Below are positions 2,118-16,804 of a stretch of 64,000 nucleotides of DNA, piece after piece. The notes below the pieces were generated by a model. It was given only the letters and a program-made list of their open reading frames with translations. It was not told the DNA's origin and searched no databases. Every line of letters begins with the position of its first letter. The stretch's first letter is position 1. This stretch comes from Cenarchaeum sp. (lineage in GTDB: Archaea > Thermoproteota > Nitrososphaeria > Nitrososphaerales > Nitrosopumilaceae). Both the position numbers and the translations under genes were made by a program. The stretch is from contig CBDESU010000002.1 of the NCBI GenBank assembly GCA_965242695.1, positions 800,001 to 864,000 on the forward strand. Direction: 5' to 3'.

Positions 2118-3316
2118 TCCGTCTCATCCCTTACGATGTCGGCGAGCGGCTTTAGATTCACGCCGACGCCGGTCGCGTTGTTCAGGTAGTAGGCGCCCTT
2201 TATGCTGTTGGTCGTGACCGCGTCGACCTCTAGCCCGCCCCTGCTGCCGCCCCCCTTACCGCAGATCAGCGGCGTGAGGCACGCGCAGCAGTCGTACAGC
2301 ATCTCGCCGCCGGCGCGCGCAATCTCGGCTGCGTGCCCGAGCCGGACGGCATCGGCCTGCGCGGCCCTCGGGCAGAACACCAGGCACCTCTTTGCAAACC
2401 TCCTGCCGCGCAGCATGCCGGCCAGGTCCGCAATCTCGCCGGGGCCGAGCTGCGGGCTGCCGAGCACCACGATATCGCCCGACTCTGCAGTGTCCAGCTC
2501 GCCGCGCACCCCTTCGGCCTCCTTTTTGCCAAAGTCGATCCTCTCGCCCTCCTTTTCGCCCCCGTCCTCGCCCTCGAGCACGAACCTCGCGCACGTGCCG
2601 GACGTGCCCATCCCGCCGCACAGCGACTTGCAGCTGCGCATGTCCGGCCTGTTATGCACCCCCGATATGCCCACCGACGCCCCCCTCACCTGCCTGCCGG
2701 CAAAGAACCCGAGCAGGCCATAGTCCATCTCGGTCGGGCGTTCGATGCCCATCCTCACCGTCGCCTCTGGGGCGGCCGGCTCCTCTTCGCGCAGGTCCGA
2801 CGCGGGGCTCTTGCCGGTGAGCGCGCTTGCAAGCGCGCTGAACGCGCTCTCCTTGTTCGTCCTCATGCCGCCGAGCGAGTTTGCGTATATGGCCGCGTTG
2901 CTCTCGGCAAATGCGACCTGCGCGCCGTCCCCGGCGCCTTGGTAGATCTCGTACGGCACGCACGAGTACGACGGCTCTACGCCCATCGCACGGTACGACC
3001 GCCGTATGCTCTCCTGCCCGGCCAGGAACTCGCCGGGCAGGCCGTACCCGGCCACGCTGTCCGCATCGTACCCCATCGGGTTGAGCGTGGCCCTCACGGC
3101 GACCCTCGCGCCCGTGCCTGCCATCTCTTCTAGGAACTCGCGCCCGGCCTCGCCTATCGTGTTGTAGTTGACGCCCGACAGGTGGGCCCACCGCACCGGG
3201 ACGAGCCGGTCGGCGCCGGCCGCCTCGCCGGTGGCGAGCAGCACGCGGTATGCGGTCTGCATGGCCTCGCCGTCCTCGCCGGCTAGCGCCCTCTCCTCGT
3301 CCCTTGCCAGCTCCAC
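2114..3316 (-). CDS. Aconitase X catalytic subunit (DUF521) / phosphomevalonate dehydratase large subunit
   Basis: AHLSGVNY, TLNP, SCVPY, AESNA..AN..G.RTN, TNSIKGAYY. Confidence 0.9.
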   Translation of the reverse strand: MELARDEERALAGEDGEAMQTAYRVLLATGEAAGADRLVPVRWAHLSGVNYNTIGEAGREFLEEMAGTGARVAVRATLNPMGYDADSVAGYGLPGEFLAGQESIRRSYRAMGVEPSYSCVPYEIYQGAGDGAQVAFAESNAAIYANSLGGMRTNKESAFSALASALTGKSPASDLREEEPAAPEATVRMGIERPTEMDYGLLGFFAGRQVRGASVGISGVHNRPDMRSCKSLCGGMGTSGTCARFVLEGEDGGEKEGERIDFGKKEAEGVRGELDTAESGDIVVLGSPQLGPGEIADLAGMLRGRRFAKRCLVFCPRAAQADAVRLGHAAEIARAGGEMLYDCCACLTPLICGKGGGSRGGLEVDAVTTNSIKGAYYLNNATGVGVNLKPLADIVRDETE

Positions 3317-3369
3317 GCGCCTGCGCGCGGCGCGACGGATATAAGCCTGATCTGCGCGCGCCCCGGCGC

Positions 3370-4074
3370 ATGAGGCGGATACTCGACGGCATGATGCGGA
3401 CGATGAACGAGCAGAGGCCGCCGCGCATGACGGCCCTGCGCGAGCTGCACGAGGCCGAGACCGGCGGGCCGTTCAGCATACTGATCGGGACCATACTGTC
3501 GGCGCGCACGCGCGACGAGAACACGACAAAGATCGTAAAGAGGCTGTTCGCAAGGTACCCCGACGCGGCCTCGCTTGCCGGCGCGCGCCTGCGCGACGTA
3601 GAGAGAATCGTAAGGCCGATCGGCTTCTACCACGTAAAGGCGCGGCGCATCATGGAGGTGGCCCGCATAATACGCGACGAGCACGGCGGCACGGTCCCCG
3701 ACGACCTCGAGACGCTCGTCGCGCTGCCCGGCGTGGGCCGCAAGACGGCCAACTGCGTCCTCGTGTACGCCTTTGAAAAGCCGGCCATACCAGTCGACAT
3801 ACACGTGCACCGCATATCGAACCGGCTCGGCCTGGTCGACACGAAGACGCCCGAGCAGACCGAGCAGGCGCTGCTCGCAAGGGTGCCCAAAAAGTACTGG
3901 CTCGAGATAAACGACACGTTCGTCATGTACGGGCAGAACATCTGCAAGCCCGTGTCGCCGATGTGCGGCGTGTGCCGCATACGCGGCAGGTGCGGGTACT
4001 ATGCGGAGCGGGGGGCGGCAGAGGCGGCGGCGGGAAAGGGCGGCCGCGGCCCCGTCTCTTCCCGCGCCGGCTGA
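3370..4074 (+). CDS. nth: Endonuclease III (HhH-GPD, 4Fe-4S)
   Basis: LPGVGRKTAN helix-hairpin-helix, VDIHVHR, C-x6-C-x2-C-x5-C. Confidence 0.95.
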   Translation: MRRILDGMMRTMNEQRPPRMTALRELHEAETGGPFSILIGTILSARTRDENTTKIVKRLFARYPDAASLAGARLRDVERIVRPIGFYHVKARRIMEVARIIRDEHGGTVPDDLETLVALPGVGRKTANCVLVYAFEKPAIPVDIHVHRISNRLGLVDTKTPEQTEQALLARVPKKYWLEINDTFVMYGQNICKPVSPMCGVCRIRGRCGYYAERGAAEAAAGKGGRGPVSSRAG

Positions 4075-4358
4075 CCGCGCGGCATGCGTTTGCTTTGCTC
4101 GGCCTGGGCCGGCTGTGCCGCGTCCCCTTCGGGCCGGCTGGTCTGGGTCGGTATAGATCCGCCCTCCCCTCCCGCGTTCGCAGCGGACAGCCTGACAGCC
4201 GGCCGGACGGCACGAACGACGGCATGTGCCCGCCCTTCCAAGCTGCCGCCGATGGGGCCTGCTCGCCTGTGCGGCAGGACTTTGAACCTGCCGCCCTCTC
4301 CCGTCTGCCTGCCACTGCGCATACGGAATGCCTGCCTGCTGTTGCCGCCTGCCGCCGC

Positions 4359-4455
4359 AGGGTGGATGCCGCACCTGCCGCCCCCCCTGCTCTCAGCCGA
4401 CACGAGGGCTGCCCGACGTTGGCTTGAGGGTGGATGCCGCACCTGCCGCCCCCCC
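4359..4455. repeat. Two-copy direct repeat (~29 bp, period 68) at the left edge of the island
   Basis: AGGGTGGATGCCGCACCTGCCGCCCCCCC at 4359 and 4427. Confidence 0.85.
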
Positions 4456-4552
4456 CCGCTGGCCCGCGTGCCTGCCTTTGTCCACCTCCCCCTGCCCCCG
4501 GCCGCCCGCTGACAACCATGGGCGCCTGCGACGTGCCGCGCCCGTCGGGCGT

Positions 4553-4575
4553 TATAACAACTCGGGGATGTTATA
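4553..4575. promoter_or_regulatory. Palindromic site upstream of GHKL-AbiEi copy 1 (putative operator)
   Basis: TATAACAA-CTCGGGG-ATGTTATA; same arms and 7-bp spacing as 11173-11195. Confidence 0.65.
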
Positions 4576-4657
4576 TCGGCGGCAGGATTCGCGCCCCAGA
4601 TGTTAATTCTGGCAAAAGGCTTTTATTCCAGCCTTAACTTCACGCCTACGAACAGGC

Positions 4658-6577
4658 ATGCTAGTCGACATCACCCCCGACAAGTCGCTCGTCAAAAAGC
4701 TGGGCCTCTCGGGGTACAGGACCGAGCAGGCCTTGGCCGAGCTGGTCGACAACTCCATTGACGCGCGAATCGATGGCGTCAAAGGTACTATTACGGTACG
4801 GCTGGACTTTGATGATCGCAGCCTCGTCGTCTCGGACGACGGCCACGGGATGAACGGCAAGGAGCTCGCCGGCGCCATGGTCATAGCCAAGAGCGACAAG
4901 GATGGCGGCAAGCTCGGCAGGTTCGGCATTGGCCTGAAGGGGGCCTGCACGGCCCTGGGAGATCGCTTTGAGATAGTCACGTCGCCCGTGGGATCGAAAA
5001 AGTGGTACCGCGCCCGGTACAGCGAGTCCGAGTGGATCAGGGACGAGTCAAAGGGGTGGAAGAACTTTGAGATCAAGACGACGGGGCCCGACCGCGGGCA
5101 GGAGGACTGGCACGGCACGCGCGTGACGGTGGACCTGCTGAATGTCCCGCTCTACCCCAACCAGGTCTCGCGGTTCAGGGAGCGGTTCGGCGTGAGGTAC
5201 TCGCCGTACCTTGAAAGCGGGCAGATCGCGATTCGGGTCAACACGGTAGAGTGCAGGCCGTCCGCCCCCGAGCTCGACGATGCGCACGGCTGGTCCAAAG
5301 TAGACATGGATCTGGAGTTTGGCAACCGAGTCCGCGGCCGGCTCGGACTGCTTCGAAAGAGATCGGTAGGCGGCCAGTACGGCATCCACCTCTTCAAGAA
5401 CGGCAGGTTGATACGGGCGTTTGAAAAGTTCGGCTTTTCGGCGCACCCGGAAAACTCGAGGCTGATAGGCGAGCTGCACCTAGACCACGTCCCGGTCAAC
5501 TTCAACAAGAGCAGGTTCATAGAGGAGAGTCGCGAATACCGCAAAACCTTGGACAGGTTCACAAAGTCCCCCGACCTGCGCCGGCTCCTGTCGTCGTCCC
5601 AGTCCAGGGCCCGGGTCCCCGCGCCGGTGGGCTCGCTCATGGACTACTTTAAGGGAAGCGGCCCCGCGCAGCGGCTGGATCGGCGCGTGCGCCAGTCCGA
5701 GGCGGCAAGGCTGCTAGGCGAGGCGGCCGGAAAGTCGTTCACGATAAGCGCCGACGGCGGCGTTCCCGTCCGGATGCGAGCCGGGCCGGCCGAGGGCAAG
5801 CCGCTGTACACGATTGGCACGGGGAACGGCGCAGTATCCATCGACGTCAATACGGGCAGCCCCCTCTTCGGGCTCGTTGGCAACCCCCTGCTACTGCTGG
5901 GCCTGGCCGCCTCCGAAGCCGAGATGGTGTCTAGGAACCCGAAGAGCGCCGCCGCCCTAGTGGAGCGCAACGCAAGGCTGGAGGGCTTTGTGCGCGAGTG
6001 GACGCCCAAGGCGCCACTGGGCCCGCTGCGCGACAGGGAGGCGCCCGTCCCTCGCACCTACGGCTACGGGCTGTACAGCGACATAATAGAGGTCCACGAC
6101 TATCTAAAGGAGAATCTCCCGATGAAGTTCCAGTTTACCGCCCTGTCGACGCTGCGGCCGTACCTGCACAACGTGCTAGGCAGGGCAGTGTACACCGTGC
6201 ACACGATGCCGGGAAGCGGCGAAGATGCGGCGGGGCTCATCATGGACAGGTTCAGCGACGAGATCGTGGCGGCGGACAGGCCCAGCCGCGAGGTGCTCAG
6301 CGCCATGTTCAACAAGGAGCGGACCCGCACCGTGGTGGCGGTTCGGGAGTACATGAACATCCCGGGCCCGTCCGTGGCCCCGCCCGCCAAGGCCTTTGTC
6401 GATCTGATCATCGAAAAAGACGTCCACAAGTCCCTCATACGCGACGACGAGCCGAGGATGGTGCTGTACAGCTTGTTGCGGCACGAGCTGGTCGACCTGG
6501 ATGAGGTGCGCAGGCAGGCCCGCCGCGTAAAGCAGACGAGGCGGCTTGAGCCTATGATCGAGGCTGGTCCCGCATGA
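4658..6577 (+). CDS. MORC/GHKL (HATPase_c_3) ATPase fused to a C-terminal AbiEi-like antitoxin domain, copy 1
   Basis: ELVDNSIDA, DDGHG, GRFGIG, GTRV GHKL motifs; S5-like GIHLFKNGRLI; C-terminal APPAKAFVDL...VDLDEVRRQARR resembles AbiEi; stop overlaps the AbiEii start (ATGA). Confidence 0.75.
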   Translation: MLVDITPDKSLVKKLGLSGYRTEQALAELVDNSIDARIDGVKGTITVRLDFDDRSLVVSDDGHGMNGKELAGAMVIAKSDKDGGKLGRFGIGLKGACTALGDRFEIVTSPVGSKKWYRARYSESEWIRDESKGWKNFEIKTTGPDRGQEDWHGTRVTVDLLNVPLYPNQVSRFRERFGVRYSPYLESGQIAIRVNTVECRPSAPELDDAHGWSKVDMDLEFGNRVRGRLGLLRKRSVGGQYGIHLFKNGRLIRAFEKFGFSAHPENSRLIGELHLDHVPVNFNKSRFIEESREYRKTLDRFTKSPDLRRLLSSSQSRARVPAPVGSLMDYFKGSGPAQRLDRRVRQSEAARLLGEAAGKSFTISADGGVPVRMRAGPAEGKPLYTIGTGNGAVSIDVNTGSPLFGLVGNPLLLLGLAASEAEMVSRNPKSAAALVERNARLEGFVREWTPKAPLGPLRDREAPVPRTYGYGLYSDIIEVHDYLKENLPMKFQFTALSTLRPYLHNVLGRAVYTVHTMPGSGEDAAGLIMDRFSDEIVAADRPSREVLSAMFNKERTRTVVAVREYMNIPGPSVAPPAKAFVDLIIEKDVHKSLIRDDEPRMVLYSLLRHELVDLDEVRRQARRVKQTRRLEPMIEAGPA

Positions 6578-7722
6578 GCAGCGCAGCGCATTTTGAAAGG
6601 CATCTAGACCGTGTCGCAATCGAGGCCATAGCTAAAAAGTACGGATTTGCCAGCAAGTCTACCGTTGAAAAATTTCTGATCGACTTTGAGGTTCTCTACC
6701 ACATGCAGAAGGCAATACCGGACTGTGTCGTCCGGGGCGGCATGGCCGTTCCATTTCACCTAGGCCGTGACGACGCCGTCAGGCTTAGTATTGATGTCGA
6801 CGCTGTGACGGGGCTGGATGCCGAAGGCTCGAGCAAGGCCATGTCCGCAGCCTTCGAGAACATGAGATCCACGATCACTCATGTAAAGCCGCACAAGCCC
6901 CGCTCCCCGAAAAAACTCCTTCCGCTCCACACATACTATTGCAAATATGATTCAGTCTTTAGTGACGAAGGTGCGGATATAAAAATTGACTTGTTTTACG
7001 GTGGGCGTCCCGCCGCGCAGACGACCTCCTTTCAACCTCCTACCACGTTGCTGGGAGTCGAGGTCGATTTTGGGGTCACTGCGTACGGCCATTCGCAAAT
7101 GATTGCCGACAAGCTCAGCACGCTGGCGTTCGGCACAATGGGGCTGGACGCTGCGGATCCGGGCGTGCCCAAGCATGTGTACGACATAGCGTCACTGGTC
7201 ATGCACGGCAGGGACAAGATCGAGATGTCCGAGATTCTTGCCTCGTTCGAAATAACTTGCCGCGAAGAGGCCTCCTACACGCAGGGGCGCCCCGCGGCTG
7301 ACGAGGATGTCTGCGACAGCCTGCGGACCTTCTATCGACGCCTACTTGTGGACGGCACCGGCCTGGAGCTCAACAAGTCGTATGCGGGCAGGTTTAGAAC
7401 CTTTGCAACAAACATGCTCGGTCGCGGCAAGTCGAAGAACCGCCTCCACGTCACGGATGTCATGCTCGCCGGCATCCTTGCGGGGATGCTCGCGGATGTT
7501 CGCATGTCCAAGCTGGAGGCAAAAGAGGCGACCTTAACGATCAACCAAATACGGGAAACGCTCAGAAGAATCGATTTGATGTCCGTTGCCAACGGAAACA
7601 AAATGGCAAGGGAACTGCGGCAGGCCTACCCGAAGGACGGCCCTGACTACAACTTGGTGAAGACCATGTGGGCTGATCAGGCGTACCTGTACGGCTTTCT
7701 GCAAGGGCGGGGCCGATCCTGA
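6574..7722 (+). CDS. AbiEii/AbiGii-family nucleotidyltransferase (type IV TA toxin)
   Basis: VVRGGMA, RLSIDVD, IKIDL, IADKLSTL, KHVYDI motifs; lower GC than the flanking core genes. Confidence 0.85.
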   Translation: MSSAAHFERHLDRVAIEAIAKKYGFASKSTVEKFLIDFEVLYHMQKAIPDCVVRGGMAVPFHLGRDDAVRLSIDVDAVTGLDAEGSSKAMSAAFENMRSTITHVKPHKPRSPKKLLPLHTYYCKYDSVFSDEGADIKIDLFYGGRPAAQTTSFQPPTTLLGVEVDFGVTAYGHSQMIADKLSTLAFGTMGLDAADPGVPKHVYDIASLVMHGRDKIEMSEILASFEITCREEASYTQGRPAADEDVCDSLRTFYRRLLVDGTGLELNKSYAGRFRTFATNMLGRGKSKNRLHVTDVMLAGILAGMLADVRMSKLEAKEATLTINQIRETLRRIDLMSVANGNKMARELRQAYPKDGPDYNLVKTMWADQAYLYGFLQGRGRS

Positions 7723-7873
7723 GGGATCGATGCGGCCGGCCGCCGTTTGTGCCTTGCAGAGGCACCGCATGCCTTGTCGGCTGCCGCGCGGAACGGCCGA
7801 GGGGCGAAAAGGTAGCAGGACAAGTGCCAACGCTAGGCATGGACCGTGGCTTGACTGTGATGCGGACGGCAGG

Positions 7874-10800
7874 TCATGGGACGCTCCCATGCCTGCCCGC
7901 TTTCCGCATGCGCACCATCTCCCCCAGGTTTTTCACAATGGAGCCTGCCGCCCTCTTGCCCACGCCGAGCGCCGCAAACACCTCGCCGTCGATCTGCGGC
8001 CTGTTTGCGGCCGGGTCGCCGCCGTACCTGCCCCACGCGTCGCCCATCCTCTTGACCGCTGCCTTTGGCATGTCGTCAAAGTCGGGAACCGGCGACTCCC
8101 CGTAGTTGAACACCTCTAGGCTGAGGGCGCCCCCTCCCATCTCCGTGCCGACGGCCTCTAGGTGGTGCTGGTACAGCGACGACGCAAAGTATGCGAGGAA
8201 CGCGCGGGCGTGCCCAGGGTTGTCCGGCGTGAAGTTTGCCAGCGTGTTGGTCGTAAAGAACCTCCCGTCGTTCTCCCACACGTCGAGCGCGTCGTTGACT
8301 ATCCTTCGCAGGATTATGGGGGGCGGGTCGGACAGCCCTAGCGAGTACCAGAACTTCCTGCCCTTCATTGCGGTGCCCTCCGACAGGGGCCTCTCCTCCC
8401 TGTTCTTGCCGCGCGTCGGCCTTTGCGTCTTCTTTTCCCCGTCCAGTATGTACTGGAGAACGCCGCGCCCGTCGGAGCGGCCCCTTAGGTCCCGCTTGGA
8501 CGCGTTGACGTTGAGCAGCCATTCGGTCGCCTTGCCGGAGTCGAGGCGGCCGGCCGGGGTCGACTTTGATACGGTCGGGCACAGGTACCTCTTGTCGATC
8601 CCGTACTCGTCGACGTCCCTCCTGGACAGAACAAAGAACCCCTTGCTGCCCGTGATCTTGCCGTACGTGATCCTTCCCGTCTCGCCGAGCGTCTTGGTCA
8701 GCGCCCGCACGCGGGGAAGGGCGGGCTTGAAGTGGGCGGCCCAGTTGCCCGGCTCGATCCCGCCCTGCCTCATCGACCTTGAAAGCCCAAAATCGCCACC
8801 GGCCAGATCGCTCTTGGCGCGCGCGTAGTTGAGGCGCACGGTGCCCCCGCCCGCCTTCTTTCCCCTGGCCAGCACGACGATGGCGGCCCTTGTGTCGGCA
8901 TCGTCGAAAAACTTGAACGCGGCGCGCGTTATCTCCCTGATCGACGAGTTTTCCAGGAGGGTCCGCTGGAGCGGCTTCCCATACTTTGAGTTCATCCATG
9001 TCTCGCTCGAGATGTACCCGAGCATCCCGCCCTCCCTGAGGTAGCGGAACGCGTGGTAGAAAAAGTAGCCGCTCAGGTCGGTCGTTCCGTCTATCTGGAA
9101 ATCAGCGGGGATGGATAACCCCGAGTGCCTTGGCAGCTGTATTTCGTCCTTGTACGCTATGTCCTGGTGCTTGACGTACGGCGGGTTGCCTATGACTATG
9201 TCGAACCCAAAGTCGGGGCGCCGCCCGGCCGACTCGTCCTGGACCATGCCCGTCCTGGGGAACACTTCCGGAAACTCCCTCTCCCATGCAAAAGTGGCAT
9301 GCTCGCCGTTGGTGCGCGACACGAGGCTGTTGCCGACCCTTATGTTGTCGGCCAGATCGGGGAGCTTTTCGTGTAGGGACGCCGTCAGCAGGAACATGGA
9401 GAGCTTTGTAATCTCGACGGACTGGCGGTTTATGTCGATTCCGTATATGTTGTCCCTGATGACGCTCCTGACCAGCGCGTCGGCAAGGATGGGCTCCAGC
9501 GTCGGGCGGCCCTCCCCGCCGGCTACTCCCTTGCGCGCCTGCACCTCTTCGTGCACCTCGAGCAGCGTGCTGGCCGCCTCGATGAGAAACGCGCCCGAGC
9601 CGCACGCGGGATCCAGTATCCTGATCGAGCGCAACCTGCCTTCCAGCGCGGGCAGGTCGCCGGCGTACTCGTCGACCAGCCCGTCAGGCGTGCTGGCCGC
9701 GCCCGTCCTTGAGAGGTACGGAATTATGGTGTTCCTGCAGATGTACCTCGTCACGTACTCGGGGGTGTAGAAGACGCCCTCTTTCTTGCGCCTGGACGTC
9801 CTCGCGCCGAGCAGCTCTTCTAGGTCTCCTATCGAGTTCTCGAATATGTGCCCGAGCATGTTGACCCTTATCTGGCTCTGAAAGTCGTACGACGACATGG
9901 CGAGCAGGTTCTTTATGATGGGGCTGGTGTCGGCGTGGCGCCTGACGGCCGCCTCCACCGAGCTCTTGAACTCCCACGACCCGCGCCTCGTCCTCGCGCC
10001 GAGCTTCCCGAAGAACCCGGCGCCCCTCCTGTCCCTTACGGACACGGAGTCGGGGATGGGCTCGCTGAAGAGGCCCCCGTTGAACCCGAATATGGCGGGG
10101 TCGTCCGATCCCTTGTTGAACCCCGCAAACAGCTCCCCCGTGATGTAGTTCCACACGCGCGTCGTATTGGTCGTCAGGTTGCCGCGCAGTATGTCGACAA
10201 CCCCGTCCTCGAGCATGGTCCTGCTGCGCACCAGCCCCGCATCCTGCGCAAAGAGGACGAAGATGAGCCTGTTGAGAAAAGTCTGGGCAAATTCCACAGC
10301 ATCGGGCCGGCTTGCCCCCGACGACTCGAACTCCTTGACCAGCATCAGCCTGGTGCGCCCGTATATGCCGTAGAACTCCATGGTGAGCTCCCTTTCTGCC
10401 TCGTCGGCTCTGATCCTAATTTTTTCGGCAAATCCCGCCTCCAGCCTTTCTCTCGAGAAGACGCCGATAAACTCGCGCAGCTTCTCGGGATTGTCCCTTA
10501 CGTCCTCAAAGTCGAACTCGTGGCACTTGCGGTATCCGTGGTCGCGCATGATCAAGACAAAGCGCCTGTAGTTTGTGCAGATGCCGTACCTTGCGCCGGC
10601 CTTTCCCATGTAGTCCCATGTCTGCCTTATTGGCGTCGAGTGCTCCGTCCTTGAGCGCCTCTGTGTTGCGAAGAGGTCGGAAGTCGATGTTCCCTTTGCT
10701 TCGATGCACACGAGGACCTGGTCGCCGTCTACACAGAACTCGAAGTCAACGTTGTCGTGTTCGTGATCCACCTGCATTGCGGGGTAGTCGAGAATCTCCT

Positions 10801-11044
10801 CAAGCATGACCTTGACAAACTTTGGATAGTTGCGCCTCTCGTCCGCCAGCTTGCCTTGGCCCAGCAGGTTGAGCCACTCGGCGGCGGCCTGCGCCTGTCC
10901 TGCAGTCGGCATCACGCCACTACACATTTCCTCAAGTGTGCCCGCTGGGAACAGCTCGCCGTATGCGCTCCTGCCTCTGCTGCCTACGCCGCGGCTTTGC
11001 CGCCCTTTCTTGGTCCGTCCCGCACCGCCTGCTCCTGCGCCCAC
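7874..11044 (-). CDS. Type IIG-like restriction-modification enzyme (endonuclease + N6-adenine methyltransferase + target recognition domain)
   Basis: N-terminal VDFEF..IEAK and GICTNY (PD-(D/E)xK); GVFYTP; ILDPACGSGAF (motif I); IGNPPY (motif IV). Confidence 0.88.
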   Translation of the reverse strand: MGAGAGGAGRTKKGRQSRGVGSRGRSAYGELFPAGTLEEMCSGVMPTAGQAQAAAEWLNLLGQGKLADERRNYPKFVKVMLEEILDYPAMQVDHEHDNVDFEFCVDGDQVLVCIEAKGTSTSDLFATQRRSRTEHSTPIRQTWDYMGKAGARYGICTNYRRFVLIMRDHGYRKCHEFDFEDVRDNPEKLREFIGVFSRERLEAGFAEKIRIRADEAERELTMEFYGIYGRTRLMLVKEFESSGASRPDAVEFAQTFLNRLIFVLFAQDAGLVRSRTMLEDGVVDILRGNLTTNTTRVWNYITGELFAGFNKGSDDPAIFGFNGGLFSEPIPDSVSVRDRRGAGFFGKLGARTRRGSWEFKSSVEAAVRRHADTSPIIKNLLAMSSYDFQSQIRVNMLGHIFENSIGDLEELLGARTSRRKKEGVFYTPEYVTRYICRNTIIPYLSRTGAASTPDGLVDEYAGDLPALEGRLRSIRILDPACGSGAFLIEAASTLLEVHEEVQARKGVAGGEGRPTLEPILADALVRSVIRDNIYGIDINRQSVEITKLSMFLLTASLHEKLPDLADNIRVGNSLVSRTNGEHATFAWEREFPEVFPRTGMVQDESAGRRPDFGFDIVIGNPPYVKHQDIAYKDEIQLPRHSGLSIPADFQIDGTTDLSGYFFYHAFRYLREGGMLGYISSETWMNSKYGKPLQRTLLENSSIREITRAAFKFFDDADTRAAIVVLARGKKAGGGTVRLNYARAKSDLAGGDFGLSRSMRQGGIEPGNWAAHFKPALPRVRALTKTLGETGRITYGKITGSKGFFVLSRRDVDEYGIDKRYLCPTVSKSTPAGRLDSGKATEWLLNVNASKRDLRGRSDGRGVLQYILDGEKKTQRPTRGKNREERPLSEGTAMKGRKFWYSLGLSDPPPIILRRIVNDALDVWENDGRFFTTNTLANFTPDNPGHARAFLAYFASSLYQHHLEAVGTEMGGGALSLEVFNYGESPVPDFDDMPKAAVKRMGDAWGRYGGDPAANRPQIDGEVFAALGVGKRAAGSIVKNLGEMVRMRKAGRHGSVP

Positions 11045-11171
11045 GGGCCGCGCAGGGATGCGGACTTTTTAAACAAAATCGTGGCCCGCCTGTTATCTTG
11101 ATCCCGCTTCTAGTGGACGTCTAGTCGTAGCCACCGGCAAGCACCCGCGCCCCCTCGCCACGCGTGGCCGA

Positions 11172-11196
11172 CTATAACATTCTCAAGATGTTATAG
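11172..11196. promoter_or_regulatory. Perfect 9-bp inverted repeat between the divergent RM and GHKL-AbiEi copy 2 genes (putative operator)
   Basis: CTATAACAT-TCTCAAG-ATGTTATAG; TATA-like TTTTTAAA near 11066 and TTATAT near 11253 on either side. Confidence 0.7.
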
Positions 11197-11288
11197 CGGG
11201 GCTACCTTACGCCTAGATTTCATAGTCTAAGAGCTTATTTACAGAATTAGCCTTATATTCTAGGATTAAGTTCGCTGTCCCGAGTGGC

Positions 11289-13229
11289 ATGCTAGTAGAC
11301 ATCACCCCTGACAAGTCCCTGATCAAGAAGCTGGGCTTGTCAGGGTACCGGACAGAGCAAGCCTTGGCCGAGCTTGTAGACAACTCGATAGACGCGCGCA
11401 TTCCCGGCCGCGTGGAGCACATTAATGTCCGCCTAGACTATGAGGCGCGCCGCATCAGTGTCACGGACGACGGCCATGGAATGGACAGCAAAGGTCTGGC
11501 AGAGGCCATGATAATAGCTCGAAGCACCAAGGACGAGGACAAGCTCGGGAAATTCGGCATAGGCATGAAGGGAGCCTGCTCTGCCCTGGGCCGCCGATTT
11601 GAGATAGTCACATCACAGGAAGGCTCTGACGTGCAGCATTGCGCAAAGTACGACGAGGAAGACTGGCTCGGTGATGCGTCCAAGGGTTGGGACAATTTTG
11701 AGGTCGAAGAGCTGCGGCCGCCCCTCAACGAGAAGGGCTGGCACGGCACACGCATAAGCATAGACCCCGTCACGGTTCCGATGTACTCCAACCAGACGGC
11801 CCGGTTCAAAGAGAGGTTCGGCACACGCTACTCGCCGTACCTTGAGTCTAAGCAGGTCGACATCTGTGTCAATACGCTGGTGTGCCGCCCAGCCGTTCCC
11901 GCACTAGCAGACACGACAGAATGGGTTCCTGTGAACATCCCCCTCGCCCCGAGAAAACGCATCTCGGGCCGCTTGGGCCTGCTCAAAAAAAGATCTGTTG
12001 GAGGCGGATACGGGATACACCTGTTCAAGAATGGCCGGCTGATAAGGGCATTTGAAAAATTTGGCTTTATGGAGCATCCAGAAAACTCACGGTTGATCGG
12101 CGAGCTTAACCTGGACCACGTTCCGGTTAATTTCAACAAAAGCCGATTCATTGAGGAAAGCGAGGCATATACCGAAGCTCTGTTCGAATTCGGCAGGTCC
12201 AGCGTATTGTCTCAAATGCTGCGCTCGTCCAAGCCGGCCAGAAAGCCTGCCGCGTCGGTCACCTCCGTCATGGACTATTTTGGGGGGCAAGGCCCCGCCC
12301 AGCGCATGGAACGGCGAATCAGAGCCTCAGAGTCGGCCAAGACACTCGGAGCGGCTACAGGGAGAGAGTTCACGATAAAGATCCCCGGCGGCACCCCCGT
12401 CTCGGTTCGCTTTGAGCAGTCGCCGGGCGGTCCATTGTACGCAACAAACGCCAGGGGCAAGAAGGTGCAGGTAAGCGTCAATGCTGGCAACCCCGCGTTC
12501 GGGCTAGTCGGCAACCCCGCGTTCCTGATCGGCCTGATAGCTTCCGAGGCTGAGATGATCTCAAAATACCCAGAACACGCCGCCCGGATGCTTGGGGAGA
12601 GGAATGAAAGGGTTGAGGGGTTTGTGCGCGAATGGATGGCGGCGCCCCCCTTGGCAGGAGGGGCGGCTCGCGAAGACTGGCGCCACAGGGAGCCGTCTCT
12701 TCCCGACATCCATGGCTACGGACTGTACCTCGATCTGCTTGAAATTCACGACCACCTTAGGAGCACATACCCAATGAAGTTCCAGTTTACCGCCCTGTCG
12801 ACGCTGCGACCATACCTGCACAACCTGCTTGGCAGGGTGGTGTATACGGTCCACGCCCTGAGGGGAAACGGCAACGAGCTGGCAGGACAGATTATGGACG
12901 AGTTTAGGGGGCGGGTCTCGGCGGTAGATCGCCCTACTCGAGATACCATTCAGGCGCTATTTTACTCGGGGCCCGCCGACACCGTGATAGCGGTCAGAGA
13001 GTACGCGAACGTCTCGAATTCAACGGTTGCCCCGCCGGCAAAGGCACTGGTCGACTTGGTTATTGAAAAGGACGTGTACAAGGTGCCCATACACGGGGAC
13101 GAGCCGAGAATGGTGCTACATGCCATGTTGCGGCACGGGCTAGTCGACCTTGCGGAGGTGCGCAGGCAGGCCCGACGCGCAAAACAATCTGCCCGGATTG
13201 AAGAGATAATCAAGGCGGGCCCCGCATGA
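11289..13229 (+). CDS. MORC/GHKL ATPase fused to an AbiEi-like domain, copy 2 (no toxin gene downstream)
   Basis: Collinear with 4658-6577 end to end (MLVDITPDKSL..., PMKFQFTALSTLRPYLHN, ...AGPA*). Confidence 0.75.
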   Translation: MLVDITPDKSLIKKLGLSGYRTEQALAELVDNSIDARIPGRVEHINVRLDYEARRISVTDDGHGMDSKGLAEAMIIARSTKDEDKLGKFGIGMKGACSALGRRFEIVTSQEGSDVQHCAKYDEEDWLGDASKGWDNFEVEELRPPLNEKGWHGTRISIDPVTVPMYSNQTARFKERFGTRYSPYLESKQVDICVNTLVCRPAVPALADTTEWVPVNIPLAPRKRISGRLGLLKKRSVGGGYGIHLFKNGRLIRAFEKFGFMEHPENSRLIGELNLDHVPVNFNKSRFIEESEAYTEALFEFGRSSVLSQMLRSSKPARKPAASVTSVMDYFGGQGPAQRMERRIRASESAKTLGAATGREFTIKIPGGTPVSVRFEQSPGGPLYATNARGKKVQVSVNAGNPAFGLVGNPAFLIGLIASEAEMISKYPEHAARMLGERNERVEGFVREWMAAPPLAGGAAREDWRHREPSLPDIHGYGLYLDLLEIHDHLRSTYPMKFQFTALSTLRPYLHNLLGRVVYTVHALRGNGNELAGQIMDEFRGRVSAVDRPTRDTIQALFYSGPADTVIAVREYANVSNSTVAPPAKALVDLVIEKDVYKVPIHGDEPRMVLHAMLRHGLVDLAEVRRQARRAKQSARIEEIIKAGPA

Positions 13230-13290
13230 GCCGCATTTCCGCATCGTGGTTACCGCCCTGCGCGCCGAGTGCGCCGCCGCGCTCTCCCTG

Positions 13291-14775
13291 CTACGCCCTG
13301 CCCCGGATCCGCCTGGATATGGCCTCGGGCAGGTCGGGTATGGCGACCCTCTCCTGGCCCATGCTGTCCCTGTCCCTGAGGGTCACGGCCCCGTCCTTCA
13401 GCGTGTCGTGGTCTATCGTCACGGCGAGCGGCGCGCCGACCTCGTCCAGCCTCCTGTACCTCCTGCCGATCGCGCCCGAGTGGTCCAAGAACGCCTCAAA
13501 GTCGCCCCTGAGCAGCCCAAACACCTCGTCTGCCTTTTCGCGCAGGCCGTCCTTCTTGACCAGCGACAGCACGCCGACCTGGACGGGGGCCAGGTGCGGC
13601 CTGATCGACAGGACCGTCCTGTTGTTGGCCTCGTCTTCGCGCAGCGAGTGCTCTAGTATGGCGTACAGGCTGCGGTCGATCCCCATCGATATCTCGAACA
13701 CGTGCGGCAGCACCTTTTCGTTGCCGTCCATCACCTCGAACTTTTCGCCGCTCTTGGCCGCGTGCCCCGACAGGTCGTGCCCCGACCTGTAGTTGCACGC
13801 CACCAGCTCTAGCCACCCCGTAGACGTCTCGACCTCAAAGTCGAACGCCGCCTCGGCGTAGAACGCCTTTTCCTTCTCGCCGAGCCTGCGGAACCTCGTC
13901 CTCTCCATGTCTATCCCCGTCTTTTCGTAGAACTCGGAGAGGAGCGCAAGGTAGTACGCGACGAGCCTGCTCGGCACCGCGCCGGACGAGGCGGCCTCGC
14001 CGGCCGTCGTCCTCTTGACGTCGGCCTCGCCGCCGAGCGTGCCGCCCTCCTGCAGCCTCAGGACCGTCTTGTCGACCTCTCCGAACCCCTCTACGCTGTC
14101 CAGCCTCGACGGGTTGCAGAACACCTCTATCTCTGCCTGGTAGAACTCCCTGAGGCGCAGCAGGCTCTGCCTCGGCGATATCTCGTTGCGAAAGCTCTTG
14201 CCGACCTGCGCGACCCCTAGCGGCAAGCGCCCCCTCATGGTCTTGTACAGCCTCGGAAAGTCCACGAATATAGACTGGCACGTCTCGGGCCGCAGGTACG
14301 CCGGCTCGCCGTCCGGCCCAATCCCGACGCTGAACATCATGTTGAACTTCTTGGCAGGCCCGAGTGCGCCGCCGCACCCCGGACAGGCCACCTTGTTGTC
14401 CCGCACGGCCCCGTCGAACTCGGCGAGCCCTGCGCTCTCGGGTATCTCGACGCCGGCGACCTCGGCCACGAGCCGGTCGGCGCGGTGTGTCGCGCCGCAC
14501 TTTGTGCACTTTACGACGGGGTCGGCAAAGCTGGCCAGGTGCCCCGACGCCTCGAACACGGACGGCGACATTATCTGCGAGCCGTCGATCTCCATCATGC
14601 GGTCCCGCCTGACGAGCTCGCGCCGCCACAGCTCCAGGAAGCGGTTCTTTAGGGCCACGCCGTTCGGGCCGTACTCCCAGAACCCGGCGTGCGCATCGCC
14701 GTACGGCCCGCAGCTCGGAAAGTAAAACCCCCTCTCGAGGGCCAGCTTCATGACGGCATCGTACTGAGCGGGCAT
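13291..14775 (-). CDS. glyS: Glycine--tRNA ligase (alpha2 type)
   Basis: YLRPETCQ, FRNEISPR, LRLREF, FEISMGIDR, IGRRYRRLDEVG. Confidence 0.96.
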   Translation of the reverse strand: MPAQYDAVMKLALERGFYFPSCGPYGDAHAGFWEYGPNGVALKNRFLELWRRELVRRDRMMEIDGSQIMSPSVFEASGHLASFADPVVKCTKCGATHRADRLVAEVAGVEIPESAGLAEFDGAVRDNKVACPGCGGALGPAKKFNMMFSVGIGPDGEPAYLRPETCQSIFVDFPRLYKTMRGRLPLGVAQVGKSFRNEISPRQSLLRLREFYQAEIEVFCNPSRLDSVEGFGEVDKTVLRLQEGGTLGGEADVKRTTAGEAASSGAVPSRLVAYYLALLSEFYEKTGIDMERTRFRRLGEKEKAFYAEAAFDFEVETSTGWLELVACNYRSGHDLSGHAAKSGEKFEVMDGNEKVLPHVFEISMGIDRSLYAILEHSLREDEANNRTVLSIRPHLAPVQVGVLSLVKKDGLREKADEVFGLLRGDFEAFLDHSGAIGRRYRRLDEVGAPLAVTIDHDTLKDGAVTLRDRDSMGQERVAIPDLPEAISRRIRGRA

Positions 14776-14827
14776 CCCTACTTCCGCCTCCCTTTCGCGC
14801 GGATGCCGCCGCGCCGGGCCGCGCCGC

Positions 14828-15670
14828 TCACTTTAGTAGCCCCCTTGCGACCCTGACGTTCTCAAAGTCGTCGCGCTCGGCGTTGATCGGCGTCTCTAGC
14901 ACGACGGGCACGTCCCTCCTGTTCGCCTCGGCCACGACGGCGGCCATGCCCTCCTCGCCGATCTGCCCCAGGCCGATGTGCTGGTGCCTGTCGAGCTTTG
15001 AGCCGATATCGCCCTTTGCGTCGTTGAGGTGCAGTATCCGCACGTTCTCGCCTCCGACCGTCCCGTCGAGCTCGGCAAACGCCTTCTTGACGGTCCCCTT
15101 CGTGCGCAGGTCGTACCCGTACACGAACGCGTGGCACGTGTCGATGCACACCCCGAACCTCTTGGCCGGCCTGAGCTTTGAGAGTATCGACCCGAGCTGC
15201 CCAAAGTCCGAGCCGACCGAGTTCTTCTGGCCTGCCGTATTCTCGAGCAGGACTACCACGCCGTTGTCGACCTCGGCGGCCTTTCCGTACGCGGCCACCA
15301 GCCTCTTGATCCCGCTCTCCTCGCCGGCCCCGAGGTGGCTGCCCAGGTGCGTCACCAGGTACGGCACGCCCAGGCTGCCGCACCTCTTTACCTCGTCGAC
15401 GAGCGTAGACACCGACCTCTTGTAGGTCGCATCGTTGTTCGACGACAGGTTCGGCAGGTAGGGCATGTGCGCGCACGTCGCCGACGGGTCGATCCCGCTG
15501 TCCTTGAGCTTTGACCTGTACGCCTCGACCTTGCCGCCGTCCAGCTCCTTGGCGTTCCACATCTGCGGGCTGCGCGTGAATATCTGAAAGGCCGTGCACT
15601 CGCGCTCTACGGCGTTGTCGACTGCCTTGTCGACGCCGCCCGAGATCGACACGTGGCACCCCAAGCGCAA
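14828..15670 (-). CDS. nfo: Endonuclease IV (AP endonuclease)
   Basis: GCHVS, HMPY, LENTAG, DTCH, HLND, DRHQH, ETP. Confidence 0.95.
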   Translation of the reverse strand: MRLGCHVSISGGVDKAVDNAVERECTAFQIFTRSPQMWNAKELDGGKVEAYRSKLKDSGIDPSATCAHMPYLPNLSSNNDATYKRSVSTLVDEVKRCGSLGVPYLVTHLGSHLGAGEESGIKRLVAAYGKAAEVDNGVVVLLENTAGQKNSVGSDFGQLGSILSKLRPAKRFGVCIDTCHAFVYGYDLRTKGTVKKAFAELDGTVGGENVRILHLNDAKGDIGSKLDRHQHIGLGQIGEEGMAAVVAEANRRDVPVVLETPINAERDDFENVRVARGLLK

Positions 15671-15725
15671 CGCCGCGCGGCCCGGCGGCGATAATTTAAG
15701 TCAGCGCGCGTGACGGCATGCGGCA

Positions 15726-16804
15726 TGGCGGTGACGGTAGGCGACGACGAGTGGGCAAAGTACCCGTTCCTGGCCGGCTCCGGCGAGTACCTGCGCGACA
15801 AGGGCTTTACGCTCGAGCAGTTCGGCACAGACCCCGACCTGAAGGTGGTCGTCAGCCGCGCCCTCGAGCGGGTGATGGCCGCCGCATCCGGCAAAGTCTA
15901 CCGCTCCGGGATGGACGGCGGCTCAAGGGTTAGCGACCACGATCGACAGATCGAGATATTCTCGTTCCTGCTAGCCGTCGTCCTGCTGCGGCTCAGCGGC
16001 ATGGACACGCTAGTGCGCAGGTTCGCCCTCGCCGAGTCGCGCAGGGCCGAGGCGCACCTGGAGAGGGACCTGGGAGGCGGGGGCGGGGGAGGAAACCGCC
16101 CGCCCGACCCGTCAAAGACCGACCTGGCGGTCCGGCTGATCGGCGAGCTCTTCTCCGTGCCAGTCTCGCAGGCCGGCGGCGGCTTTGCCATATCCGTGCC
16201 CGACTACGTAAGGCATGCCGTAAAGTTCCACGAGGTCGAGTGGAAGCTCGTAAACCGGCGCGTCAGCGGAGGCCTTGTCCACCTGACCCGGCACGAGGTC
16301 ATCAGGCTCGTGCGCAGCGAGCTTGGCGACTACATACTGAACCGCGTAAGGTCGGCGCCCGTGCCGGACATGCTGCCGCACTTCGAGGCCCCCGTGGCCG
16401 AGCTCGTCGCCGTCGCCAAGAGGCTAGAGCCGGCCCCGCCGCCGCAGGCCGGCGCCGACGACGAGCCGCCCCCCTGCATCAAGCACGCCATGGCCGTGCT
16501 AGAGCGCGGCGAGAACCTGCCGCACTCGGGCCGGTTCATGCTCGCCACGTTCTTCATCAACCGCGGCTGGCCCATCGACAGGATCGCTCCAATGTTCAAG
16601 GGCGCGCCCGACTACAACGAGCGCATTACAATGTACCAGCTGCGGCACCTGTCCGGCGAGGGCTCGTCGGGCGGGACAAAGTACTCTTGCCCGTCGTGCA
16701 AGAAGCTGCAGGGCCAGGACCTGTGCTTTCCCGTCCCCGCGTGCGATGGAATATTCAGCCCGATGCAGTTCAAGGGGGAGGCCAAGGGCGATGCGTCCCC
16801 TTGA
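15726..16804 (+). CDS. priL: DNA primase large subunit
   Basis: AKYPFL, WKLVNR, PPCI, NLPHSGRF, YSCPSC Fe-S domain. Confidence 0.93.

Follow-up and report, generated by a model that had tools for sequence, protein, structure and literature searches.

A genomic island of a Cenarchaeum archaeon with an AbiEii-type nucleotidyltransferase gene coupled to a gene for a GHKL ATPase with a predicted AbiEi-class C-terminal domain

Gene content of the island

The window analysed here is a stretch of 64,000 nucleotides of a Cenarchaeum sp. genome (GenBank assembly GCA_965242695.1, contig CBDESU010000002.1, positions 800,001 to 864,000). Between the nth and glyS genes it contains an island with four genes, the first two of which, P0001 and P0002, constitute the module that is the subject of this work: P0001 encodes a GHKL-type ATPase fused to a putative antitoxin domain, and P0002 encodes a nucleotidyltransferase of the AbiEii/MenT type (Table 1). 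A preliminary description of the locus, which was prepared from the DNA sequence, had regarded these two genes together with the restriction-modification (RM) gene P0003 and the second fusion gene, P0004, as a candidate new defence system coupled to RM.

The gene arrangement given in that description was confirmed in all its elements. The stop codon of P0001 overlaps the start codon of P0002 in the ATGA tetranucleotide at 6574-6577, P0002 and the gene of the single-chain RM enzyme converge with a gap of 151 bp, and the second copy of the fusion, P0004, is divergent from the RM gene, with 244 bp between them. The glyS gene begins 61 bp past the P0004 stop codon. In two genomes of the same genus (G152 and G147), glyS comes directly after nth at a distance of about 66-100 bp, and therefore the whole 9.2-kb block is an insertion. 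The GC profile of the region is consistent with this, the four genes of the island having a GC content of 57-65% as compared to 67-73% on either flank.

Table 1. Positions of the genes, protein domains and upstream elements of the island and of its flanks in the window
Feature	Position	Strand	Remarks
nth (endonuclease III)	3250-4074	+	left flank of the island
Inserted genomic island	4075-13290		9.2 kb; GC dip and empty sites in relatives
Palindrome TATAACA-N9-TGTTATA	4553-4575		candidate operator; its centre lies 94 nt before the P0001 start
AT-rich box CTTTTATT	4620-4627	+	~34 nt upstream of the P0001 ATG; found by eye
P0001	4658-6577	+	639-aa GHKL-S5-middle-DUF6577 fusion; antitoxin-like ATPase
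GHKL ATP-binding domain (~residues 20-165) and S5-like transducer (~166-300) of P0001	4715-5557	+	
Middle domain of P0001 (~residues 305-450)	5570-6007		+	helices, 4-stranded sheet and two long helices in the AlphaFold (AF2) model
DUF6577 / AbiEi-class antitoxin domain of P0001 (residues 467-637)	6056-6568	+	predicted by profile-profile comparison
P0002	6574-7722	+	382-aa AbiEii/MenT-type nucleotidyltransferase, putative toxin; ATGA-coupled to P0001
P0003	7874-11044	-	1056-aa single-chain Type IIG RM enzyme
Palindrome TATAACA-N9-TGTTATA, second copy	11173-11195		between the RM gene and P0004; centred 105 nt upstream of P0004
P0004	11289-13229	+	646 aa; orphan paralogue of P0001, built of the same four parts; no toxin gene
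glyS (glycine-tRNA ligase)	13291-14775	-	NCBIfam 1.5e-145; right flank of the island

The C-terminal domain of P0001 is predicted to be of the AbiEi class

A family-level profile of the last ~185 residues was used to search 1.84 billion cluster representatives and retrieved 195 proteins at E<=0.001. Among the best 150 of these, 27 are proteins of 619-698 aa with the domain at their C-terminal end, and most others are proteins of 218-311 aa in which the domain follows a short N-terminal region. Sixty standalone proteins were chosen from the best 150 by the latter length range. The majority of them (54) match Pfam DUF6577 (best 1.7e-46), 17 have the AbiEi_4 winged helix, and a few have other winged helix-turn-helix (wHTH) families, while none of these standalone DUF6577 antitoxins contains an ATP-binding domain. 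The PADLOC AbiEi model PDLC02235 also matches 54 of the 60 (best 2.1e-48), and a second PADLOC AbiEi model matches 53 (best 2.1e-77). The alignment of the fusion domain with the 60 standalone proteins by hhalign extends over 167 columns (99.9%, E 5e-35).

Relatives of P0001 were counted in a genome-collection scan, which gave 80 loci; all counts given below for full-length relatives refer to the 38 loci with an ATPase open reading frame (ORF) scoring above 380 bits against P0001. Three loci in which the contig ends inside the gene (L030, L032, L033), a fragment (L048), six loci of candidate phyla radiation (CPR) bacteria that match residues 3-319 only, and L049-L080, which are weak matches to the ATP-binding core, fall outside this set. 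The DUF6577 model matches 20 of the 38 (best 2.6e-6), and PDLC02235 matches 21 (best 1.8e-7). The matches of the P0004 C-terminus are weak: 0.0063 for the PADLOC AbiEi model (residues 577-642) and 0.051 for DUF6577.

These results support the assignment of the C-terminal domain of P0001, whose resemblance to AbiEi had been pointed out in the preliminary description, to the AbiEi class of antitoxin domains. The wHTH domain appears to be missing. No wHTH match was found in P0001 or P0004 with Pfam, nor do these proteins have the N-terminal AbiEi_4 winged helix that is characteristic of AbiE and serves autoregulation there, and hhalign gave no alignment of the residues from 305 on with the wHTH of standalone AbiEi proteins. 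The homology of the DUF6577 domain, together with the existence of its standalone form with a winged helix and with the same toxin downstream (see below), supports the earlier proposal that in P0001 the C-terminal domain of AbiEi has been kept and its winged helix replaced by an ATPase. A search of viral contigs with the 60 standalone DUF6577 proteins as queries revealed no relative, and a PDB sequence search with a standalone DUF6577 protein gave chance-level matches only.

P0002 and its conserved pairing with the ATPase gene

The product of P0002 matches the Pfam AbiEii family (PF08843) at 5.1e-13, with 49.9 bits as compared to the cut-off of 22.5, and the PADLOC AbiEii model at 2.2e-14. The motifs GG...RxSxDxD, DK and KxxxD, whose roles are those of nucleotidyltransferase motifs described for AbiEii and MenT, are represented by G55, G56, R70, S72, D74, D76, D179, K180, K200 and D204, none of which varies among 26 sequences; the two other toxin copies of the window's genome retain them as well.

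A homologue of P0002 starts at the end of the ATPase gene in 31 of the 38 full-length relatives. Of these paired toxins, 27 are of at least 360 aa and four are fragments (L004, L013, L034, L043). The ATPase gene and the toxin gene are thus a conserved unit, and the co-occurrence with AbiEii genes, one of the points on which the preliminary description made its proposal depend, was observed. In named genome records, the full-length relatives of P0001 come almost exclusively from Nitrosopumilaceae/Thaumarchaeota metagenome-assembled genomes (MAGs), with one from a Dehalococcoidia MAG.

Toxins of the same subfamily also accompany the standalone antitoxins. In one genome of the same phylum they follow both of two standalone wHTH-DUF6577 genes, and in 63 of 80 metagenome loci, some of which are near-duplicates, a standalone DUF6577 gene is followed by a gene matching, at E 1e-9 to 1e-63, a hidden Markov model (HMM) that was built only from fusion-linked toxins. 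This corresponds to 63 of the 67 ORFs found downstream of standalone DUF6577 genes; 10 of the 17 loci without a match have less than 400 nt of downstream DNA. In a quick, unrooted maximum likelihood tree, 26 fusion-linked toxins (the toxin of the window and 25 of the 27 intact ones, L001 and L031 having been dropped as longer ORFs) are separated from 37 standalone-linked toxins (those of the 63 that are complete, 340-430 aa long and non-identical) by one branch with an SH-aLRT of 100 and one label change, the standalone sample being derived from relatives of the proteins nearest to the fusions.

The ATPase head and the middle domain of P0001

All four GHKL motifs reported earlier for the 639-aa product are present in the translation of P0001, in the form of AELVDNSIDA, DDGHGM, LGRFGIGLKG and WHGTRV, and Pfam HATPase_c_3, which comprises the GHKL/Bergerat ATP-binding motifs, is matched at 6e-18. 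The match to Pfam Morc6_S5 (4.8e-5) is sub-threshold, its 23.9 bits being below the cut-off of 26.2. The AF2 model of residues 1-322, obtained with a 45-sequence alignment, has a pLDDT of 85.4. The best PDB folds found for it with Foldseek are those of SMCHD1 (6mw7, 9e-18), MORC4, MORC3 and MORC2 (to 1e-16), with Hsp90/TRAP1 ranking after them. The alignments with the ATPase modules of SMCHD1, MORC2, MORC3 and MORC4 cover 364-403 columns, with a query-normalised TM of 0.61-0.70, and include the transducer of S5 fold, whose presence had been noted before. Judging from the predicted fold, the ATPase half of P0001 is MORC-like, as had been assumed.

The ExxxN and DxGxG motifs and the glycine-rich lid are invariant in the family. 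Among the 45 sequences, invariant residues include E28, N32, D60, G64, G87, G90 and G92 of the ATP site, K284 of the S5 domain, and P7 and D8 of the N-terminal strap, in which I5, T6 and K14 are nearly so. Clamps of the GHKL type dimerise through the N-terminus, and the conservation of the ATP site and of the strap would fit an active ATPase that dimerises in this way.

Among the named models of PADLOC and NCBIfam, the N-terminal ~120 residues of P0001 match best to MzaB, a component of the MZA anti-phage system. The identification of P0001 as MzaB was rejected: the match scores 44.9 bits as compared to the equivalog cut-off of 850 and concerns only residues 18-139, i.e., the ATP-binding core.

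The middle and C-terminal half of P0001 was modelled by AF2 with a pLDDT of 84.5. Foldseek found no match to this half at E<=0.001 in the viral BFVD, and a comparison of the middle domain with the protein atlas gave only unnamed clusters (0.92-0.93). A search of viral contigs with alignment A1 as a query retrieved 38 loci, all of which correspond to the N-terminal ATPase part only, and no full-length relative.

Relatives of the ATPase clade in CPR bacteria are 31-37% identical to P0001 over residues 1-319. Those of L038, L041, L045 and L047 terminate not in an antitoxin domain but in Sigma70_r4 and Bac_DnaA_C helix-turn-helix (HTH) domains, and therefore the GHKL-S5 module is one that is repeatedly joined to a second functional domain. 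Their neighbours include a gene for a 1004-aa RelA_SpoT protein (L045), genes for a C5 methylase and Eco47II endonuclease (L041), and a gene for a C5 methylase (L047).

The RM gene is a local neighbour of the module

The product of P0003 has a gamma-class N6-adenine methyltransferase core (Pfam Eco57I 1.2e-31, MmeI_Mtase 2.6e-17, N6_Mtase 8.4e-14) and matches the PADLOC model REase_MTase_IIG at 6.8e-56, in agreement with its earlier identification. No nuclease family was matched with Pfam in its N-terminal region, which contains a D...EAK string recognised by eye by comparison with the PD-(D/E)xK motif.

No homologue of P0003 was found by phmmer (1e-3) near any of the 38 full-length relatives of P0001, a result that applies to these loci and not to the gene surroundings of the nearest relatives, P0006-P0033 (60-98% identity). 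Within 2.5 kb of the module there are 130 ORFs of at least 180 aa, as called by a simple ORF script that filters overlaps greedily; no RM methyltransferase is among the 25 families listed for them, and no Pfam family occurs in more than three of these ORFs. None of the nine largest neighbours is an RM protein; they belong to SNF2, subtilase, Cache, AAA_13 (two), AAA_5/EVE and UPF0182 or are unassigned. An adjacent RM gene was seen only in the window's genome and in the same-genus genome G153, at the same site, and this adjacency is of single ancestry. In G153, nth is followed after ~1.2 kb by the RM gene and then by an orphan ATPase gene, which ~600 bp separate from glyS. Searches of the 1.2-kb and 600-bp flanks with tblastn and HMM did not reveal any remnant of a toxin gene.

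Since G153 retains the RM gene and the orphan without a toxin, the toxin is outside the conserved RM-linked unit, and the window can be described as a complete P0001-P0002 module located beside an RM-plus-orphan pair, rather than as a symmetric four-gene system. The RM gene is a neighbour, not a conserved partner, and its link with the module is local. The coupling to RM proposed in the preliminary description, and with it the RM-coupled defence system, is thus not upheld. Two ATPase genes do flank the RM gene, as described, but they belong to one complete module and one toxin-less orphan, so the notion of a bracketing pair holds for gene positions and not for symmetry.

The orphan paralogue and other copies of the module

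The products of P0004 and P0001 are identical at 389 of 646 positions (60%) over their full length. The orphan of G153 (L222 3015-4946, minus strand) is intact and encodes a 643-aa protein that is 67% identical to that of P0004. Between these two orthologues, the ratio of nonsynonymous to synonymous substitution rates (dN/dS) has an overall value of 0.21 and a value of 0.23 for the C-terminal domain, with dS of ~1.08, which is near saturation for the NG86 method. The orphan P0004 is therefore under purifying selection. In the C-terminal domain the G153 orphan is closer to P0001 than to P0004 (dN 0.168 vs. 0.292), while overall it is about equidistant from both, which hints at recombination between the paralogues.

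An ORF at 13226-13792 on the plus strand, ATGA-coupled to P0004, was considered and rejected as a gene, as it is of low complexity and antisense to glyS. The similarity between P0001 and P0004 extends 5 nt past the stop codon, and the junction of P0004 with this ORF resembles that of P0001 with P0002. Possibly, it is the last trace of the start of a lost toxin gene.

The window's genome contains five copies of the ATPase gene and three of the toxin gene. This, together with the site being empty in two same-genus genomes, makes the module a self-contained mobile unit. At 875-883 kb of contig C2, shortly past the end of the window (L096, C2:868000-887000, locus 7587-14826), a 577-aa ATPase gene, from which most of the C-terminal domain is gone, precedes a DDE_3 transposase gene of opposite orientation, a motif-intact toxin gene, and a full-length ATPase gene (700-aa ORF). 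This looks like an insertion-sequence hit on an antitoxin gene that left the toxin intact. At 1.466 Mb of contig C1 (L097, C1:1458000-1475000, locus 7626-16063), a 666-aa ATPase ORF precedes an AbiEii gene with one in-frame TGA; a 709-aa protein with a DndB domain (1.5e-109) is encoded ~3 kb beyond this broken toxin gene. The pattern of orphans and turnover points to an ability of antitoxin-like copies to act in trans, and the orphan P0004 probably does so as a spare antitoxin or a regulator.

Palindromes and promoter-like boxes upstream of the ATPase genes

The start coordinate of the locus in the preliminary description, 4553, is the first base of the first of the two TATAACA-N9-TGTTATA palindromes. 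There are exactly two such palindromes in the window, as compared to none expected from 100 shuffles. The same palindrome is also located upstream of the G153 copy, and related palindromes of CTATAC...GTATAG type precede three other copies in the window's genome, so that palindromes precede all six high-GC copies examined. In the 38 upstream loci of Nitrosopumilaceae, perfect palindromes of any kind with 8-nt arms are enriched (10 of 38 loci vs. 198 of 2917 background windows). An AT-rich box, CCTTATATT, lies ~34 nt before the P0004 ATG, and a box at the same spacing precedes the G153 copy. By comparison with the archaeal promoter consensus, CTTTTATT and CCTTATATT are presumably TATA-like promoter elements.

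Discussion

Results of our analysis indicate that the locus is an ATPase-headed form of the AbiE kind that is conserved in a narrow archaeal group. In AbiE systems composed of a wHTH-DUF6577 protein and AbiEii (PADLOC PDLC02235 and PDLC02243), the toxin is of the same subfamily, the antitoxin's C-terminal domain is homologous, and the gene order and overlapping stop and start codons are the same as those of P0001 and P0002. The difference concerns the N-terminal part of the antitoxin, where P0001 has, instead of the AbiEi_4 winged helix, ~450 residues that comprise the GHKL ATPase, S5 and middle domains. The family of P0001 differs from AbiE also in its host range, which is almost wholly limited to Nitrosopumilaceae, and in the frequency of toxin-less orphan copies. 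The MenA/MenT pairs of Mycobacterium tuberculosis, which are relatives of AbiE, likewise consist of an AbiEii-type nucleotidyltransferase and an antitoxin encoded upstream, but have no counterpart of the ATPase head, and neither by sequence nor by fold was a solved chain found that matches the antitoxin half of P0001. The antitoxin mechanisms of this family vary and include phosphorylation, which is reported in PMC7205606.

Prokaryotic MORC and paraMORC proteins share with P0001 the combination of GHKL and S5 domains with intact ATP motifs and a family-specific C-terminal extension, and an RM gene is also a neighbour in the window. However, the extension of P0001 is predicted to be a domain of the AbiEi class, and its partner is an AbiEii toxin rather than a helicase, nuclease or methylase. 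Genes of prokaryotic MORC and paraMORC proteins are reported to occur mainly in RM operons by Iyer, Abhiman and Aravind (2008, PMC2292703), in the main text of whose work the words "nucleotidyltransferase" and "toxin" are absent. The family of P0001 does not share a conserved neighbourhood of RM, superfamily II helicase or nuclease genes, an RM neighbour having been seen in this genus only and at none of the 38 loci. We did not find a description of an ATPase-AbiEi fusion in full-text literature searches, in which the listed papers were judged by title and abstract, nor a named system for the locus, as PADLOC, NCBIfam and Pfam give domain-level matches only. This is in line with the remark in the preliminary description that the fusion was not recognised as a named system.

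The explanation that we favour, and to which we give a slightly better than even chance, is that P0001 and P0002 form an AbiE-family, type IV-like two-gene toxin-antitoxin or abortive-infection module of an archaeon, in which the antitoxin is headed by a MORC-like ATPase. The product of P0002, a nucleotidyltransferase of the AbiEii/MenT type with intact catalytic-type motifs, would be the toxin, and that of P0001, encoded upstream and translationally coupled, would be its cognate antitoxin. The C-terminal domain of classical AbiEi neutralises the toxin, and the DUF6577 domain of P0001 may similarly keep P0002 inactive. P0001 would dimerise via its ATPase heads, in keeping with the invariance of the N-terminal strap and with a palindrome lying upstream of each copy. 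Through binding and hydrolysis of ATP, the C-terminal domain would change between two states, one toxin-neutralising and one permissive. The toxin would be set free, and would arrest growth, upon a cue that the ATPase or middle part senses, the most plausible one being invading nucleic acid.

Several observations weigh against this explanation. The C-terminus of P0001 itself has no single-sequence match in Pfam or PADLOC, so the link with AbiEi rests on profiles. The profile alignment agreed with the resemblance to AbiEi that was put forward earlier, but the structural comparison did not add to it, as Foldseek found no solved structure in PDB, and hence no crystallised AbiEi or MenA antitoxin, that matches the C-terminal half at E<=0.001, and PDB sequence searches with the antitoxin half gave nothing below E 0.19. 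The toxin gene is absent from seven of the 38 loci (L009, L018, L021, L024, L027, L028, L029) and does not accompany two of the five ATPase copies in the window's genome, from which it follows that the ATPase protein must have a role without a toxin in cis. Palindromes persist upstream although the winged helix is gone, and those of the CTATA...TATAG type occur in only one of the 38 Nitrosopumilaceae upstream loci (vs. 4 of 5316 background windows). In addition, the family is taxonomically narrow.

A bolder version of the favoured explanation, which we put forward tentatively and consider possible rather than probable, ascribes to the MORC-like protein the function of an infection sensor in ammonia-oxidising archaea. 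On invading DNA, the ATP-driven dimeric clamp would withdraw its AbiEi-type domain, upon which AbiEii would block translation. Orphans without a toxin, such as that retained next to the RM gene in two genomes, would serve in trans as sensors or antitoxins and would join several loci in a network. The pair may also be a purely selfish addiction module that stabilises itself and the island, in which the ATPase head clamps the DNA of the palindromic operator for autoregulation instead of sensing infection, and which has no function in defence. We find this unlikely. The family is multi-copy, patchy and island-borne, the in-frame stop codon in one toxin gene, the antitoxin gene cut by DDE_3 and the orphan antitoxin-like genes are typical of toxin-antitoxin turnover, and both the palindromes upstream of all the high-GC copies examined and the fusion of the same ATPase clade to DNA-binding HTH domains in CPR bacteria also speak for this explanation. 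A module of 450 residues that consumes energy and is under purifying selection (dN/dS 0.17-0.28) would, however, be a costly substitute for a repressor head of 60 residues, and some neighbours are of defence type (AAA_13, AAA_5/EVE, DndB, RM). This counter-evidence is weak, and the selfish module differs from the favoured explanation in the trigger alone.

The remaining explanations are less probable. If the two ATPase-AbiEi proteins monitored the Type IIG enzyme, or the DNA that escapes it, and released the toxin upon a failure of restriction, the four genes would be one system. The position of the RM gene between two ATPase genes, the conservation in G153 of the divergent RM-orphan pair and of the palindrome between its two genes, the reported occurrence of prokaryotic MORC/paraMORC genes mainly in RM operons (PMC2292703), and the C5-methylase or Eco47II neighbours in two of the six CPR relatives of the ATPase module would all suit such a back-up of RM. 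It is nevertheless improbable in view of the lack of P0003 homologues and of listed RM methyltransferases around the 38 relatives, including among the nine largest neighbours, and of the missing toxin at the G153 site, which shares one ancestry with that of the window. The GHKL superfamily includes protein kinases, and this raises the question whether P0001 is an enzymatic, type VII-like antitoxin whose ATP-binding head, instead of acting as a clamp, modifies the toxin in an ATP-dependent way. A precedent is the M. tuberculosis pair Rv1044-Rv1045, in which phosphorylation of an AbiEii-type toxin is the mechanism of antitoxicity, as reported in PMC7205606. The top listed folds are, however, ATPase clamps with S5 domains (SMCHD1, MORC, Hsp90) and not kinases, and the standalone DUF6577 antitoxins that go with this toxin subfamily do without an ATP-binding domain, which leaves this mechanism with a chance even somewhat smaller than that of the RM back-up. 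Finally, the pair may not be a toxin-antitoxin module at all, but a MORC-like DNA-handling ATPase and a non-toxic nucleotidyltransferase that act together on nucleic acid. MORC-like proteins do act on DNA, and orphan ATPase copies are maintained without the transferase. We regard this as very improbable, since P0002 scores above the Pfam AbiEii cut-off and its subfamily follows classical wHTH-AbiEi genes at 63 of the 80 metagenome loci.

Modules of the AbiE/MenAT type are widespread, and the way in which their trigger is sensed is poorly understood. As the same toxin subfamily and neutralising domain occur with either a winged helix or a ~450-residue ATPase head, the contribution of the head, and ATP gating, can be tested directly, and the P0001 family is in this sense a natural experiment on antitoxin heads. 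It provides the Nitrosopumilaceae archaea with a candidate toxin-antitoxin or defence module that is defined and conserved, and links the fold family of the eukaryotic silencing ATPases MORC and SMCHD1 to a prokaryotic conflict system other than RM. If the protein proves to be a clamp that senses infection, gating of an AbiE system by an NTPase would be seen here for the first time, and MORC/SMCHD1-type ATPases as immune sensors of nucleic acids would have a prokaryotic precedent.

Other observations on the genome and the island

The small subunit ribosomal RNA of the window's genome is matched best, over its full length, by the archaeal Rfam model (1450.5 bits, with clan competition), and 42-71% of the sampled words of the stretch are present in sequencing runs labelled as sponge metagenome, while no RNA run is listed for the stretch. 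The spacer that separates nth from P0001, 583 bp long, GC-rich and located at the left end of the island, contains a perfect 29-nt direct repeat, AGGGTGGATGCCGCACCTGCCGCCCCCCC, at 4359-4387 and 4427-4455, 68 nt apart, which may be a scar of the insertion or a repeat of the attachment type. At least five DNA matches of 65-69% identity to the methyltransferase core of the Type IIG gene (~9320-10710) are present elsewhere in the window's genome (contigs C1 and C2), and more in G153; therefore, there are several Type IIG paralogues in both genomes. In a Cenarchaeum record (L029), a toxin-less ATPase copy is located between genes for two AAA_13 proteins (4384-6798, minus strand, and 10500-12845, plus strand), and a second member of the family (L031) lies ~20 kb away on the same contig.

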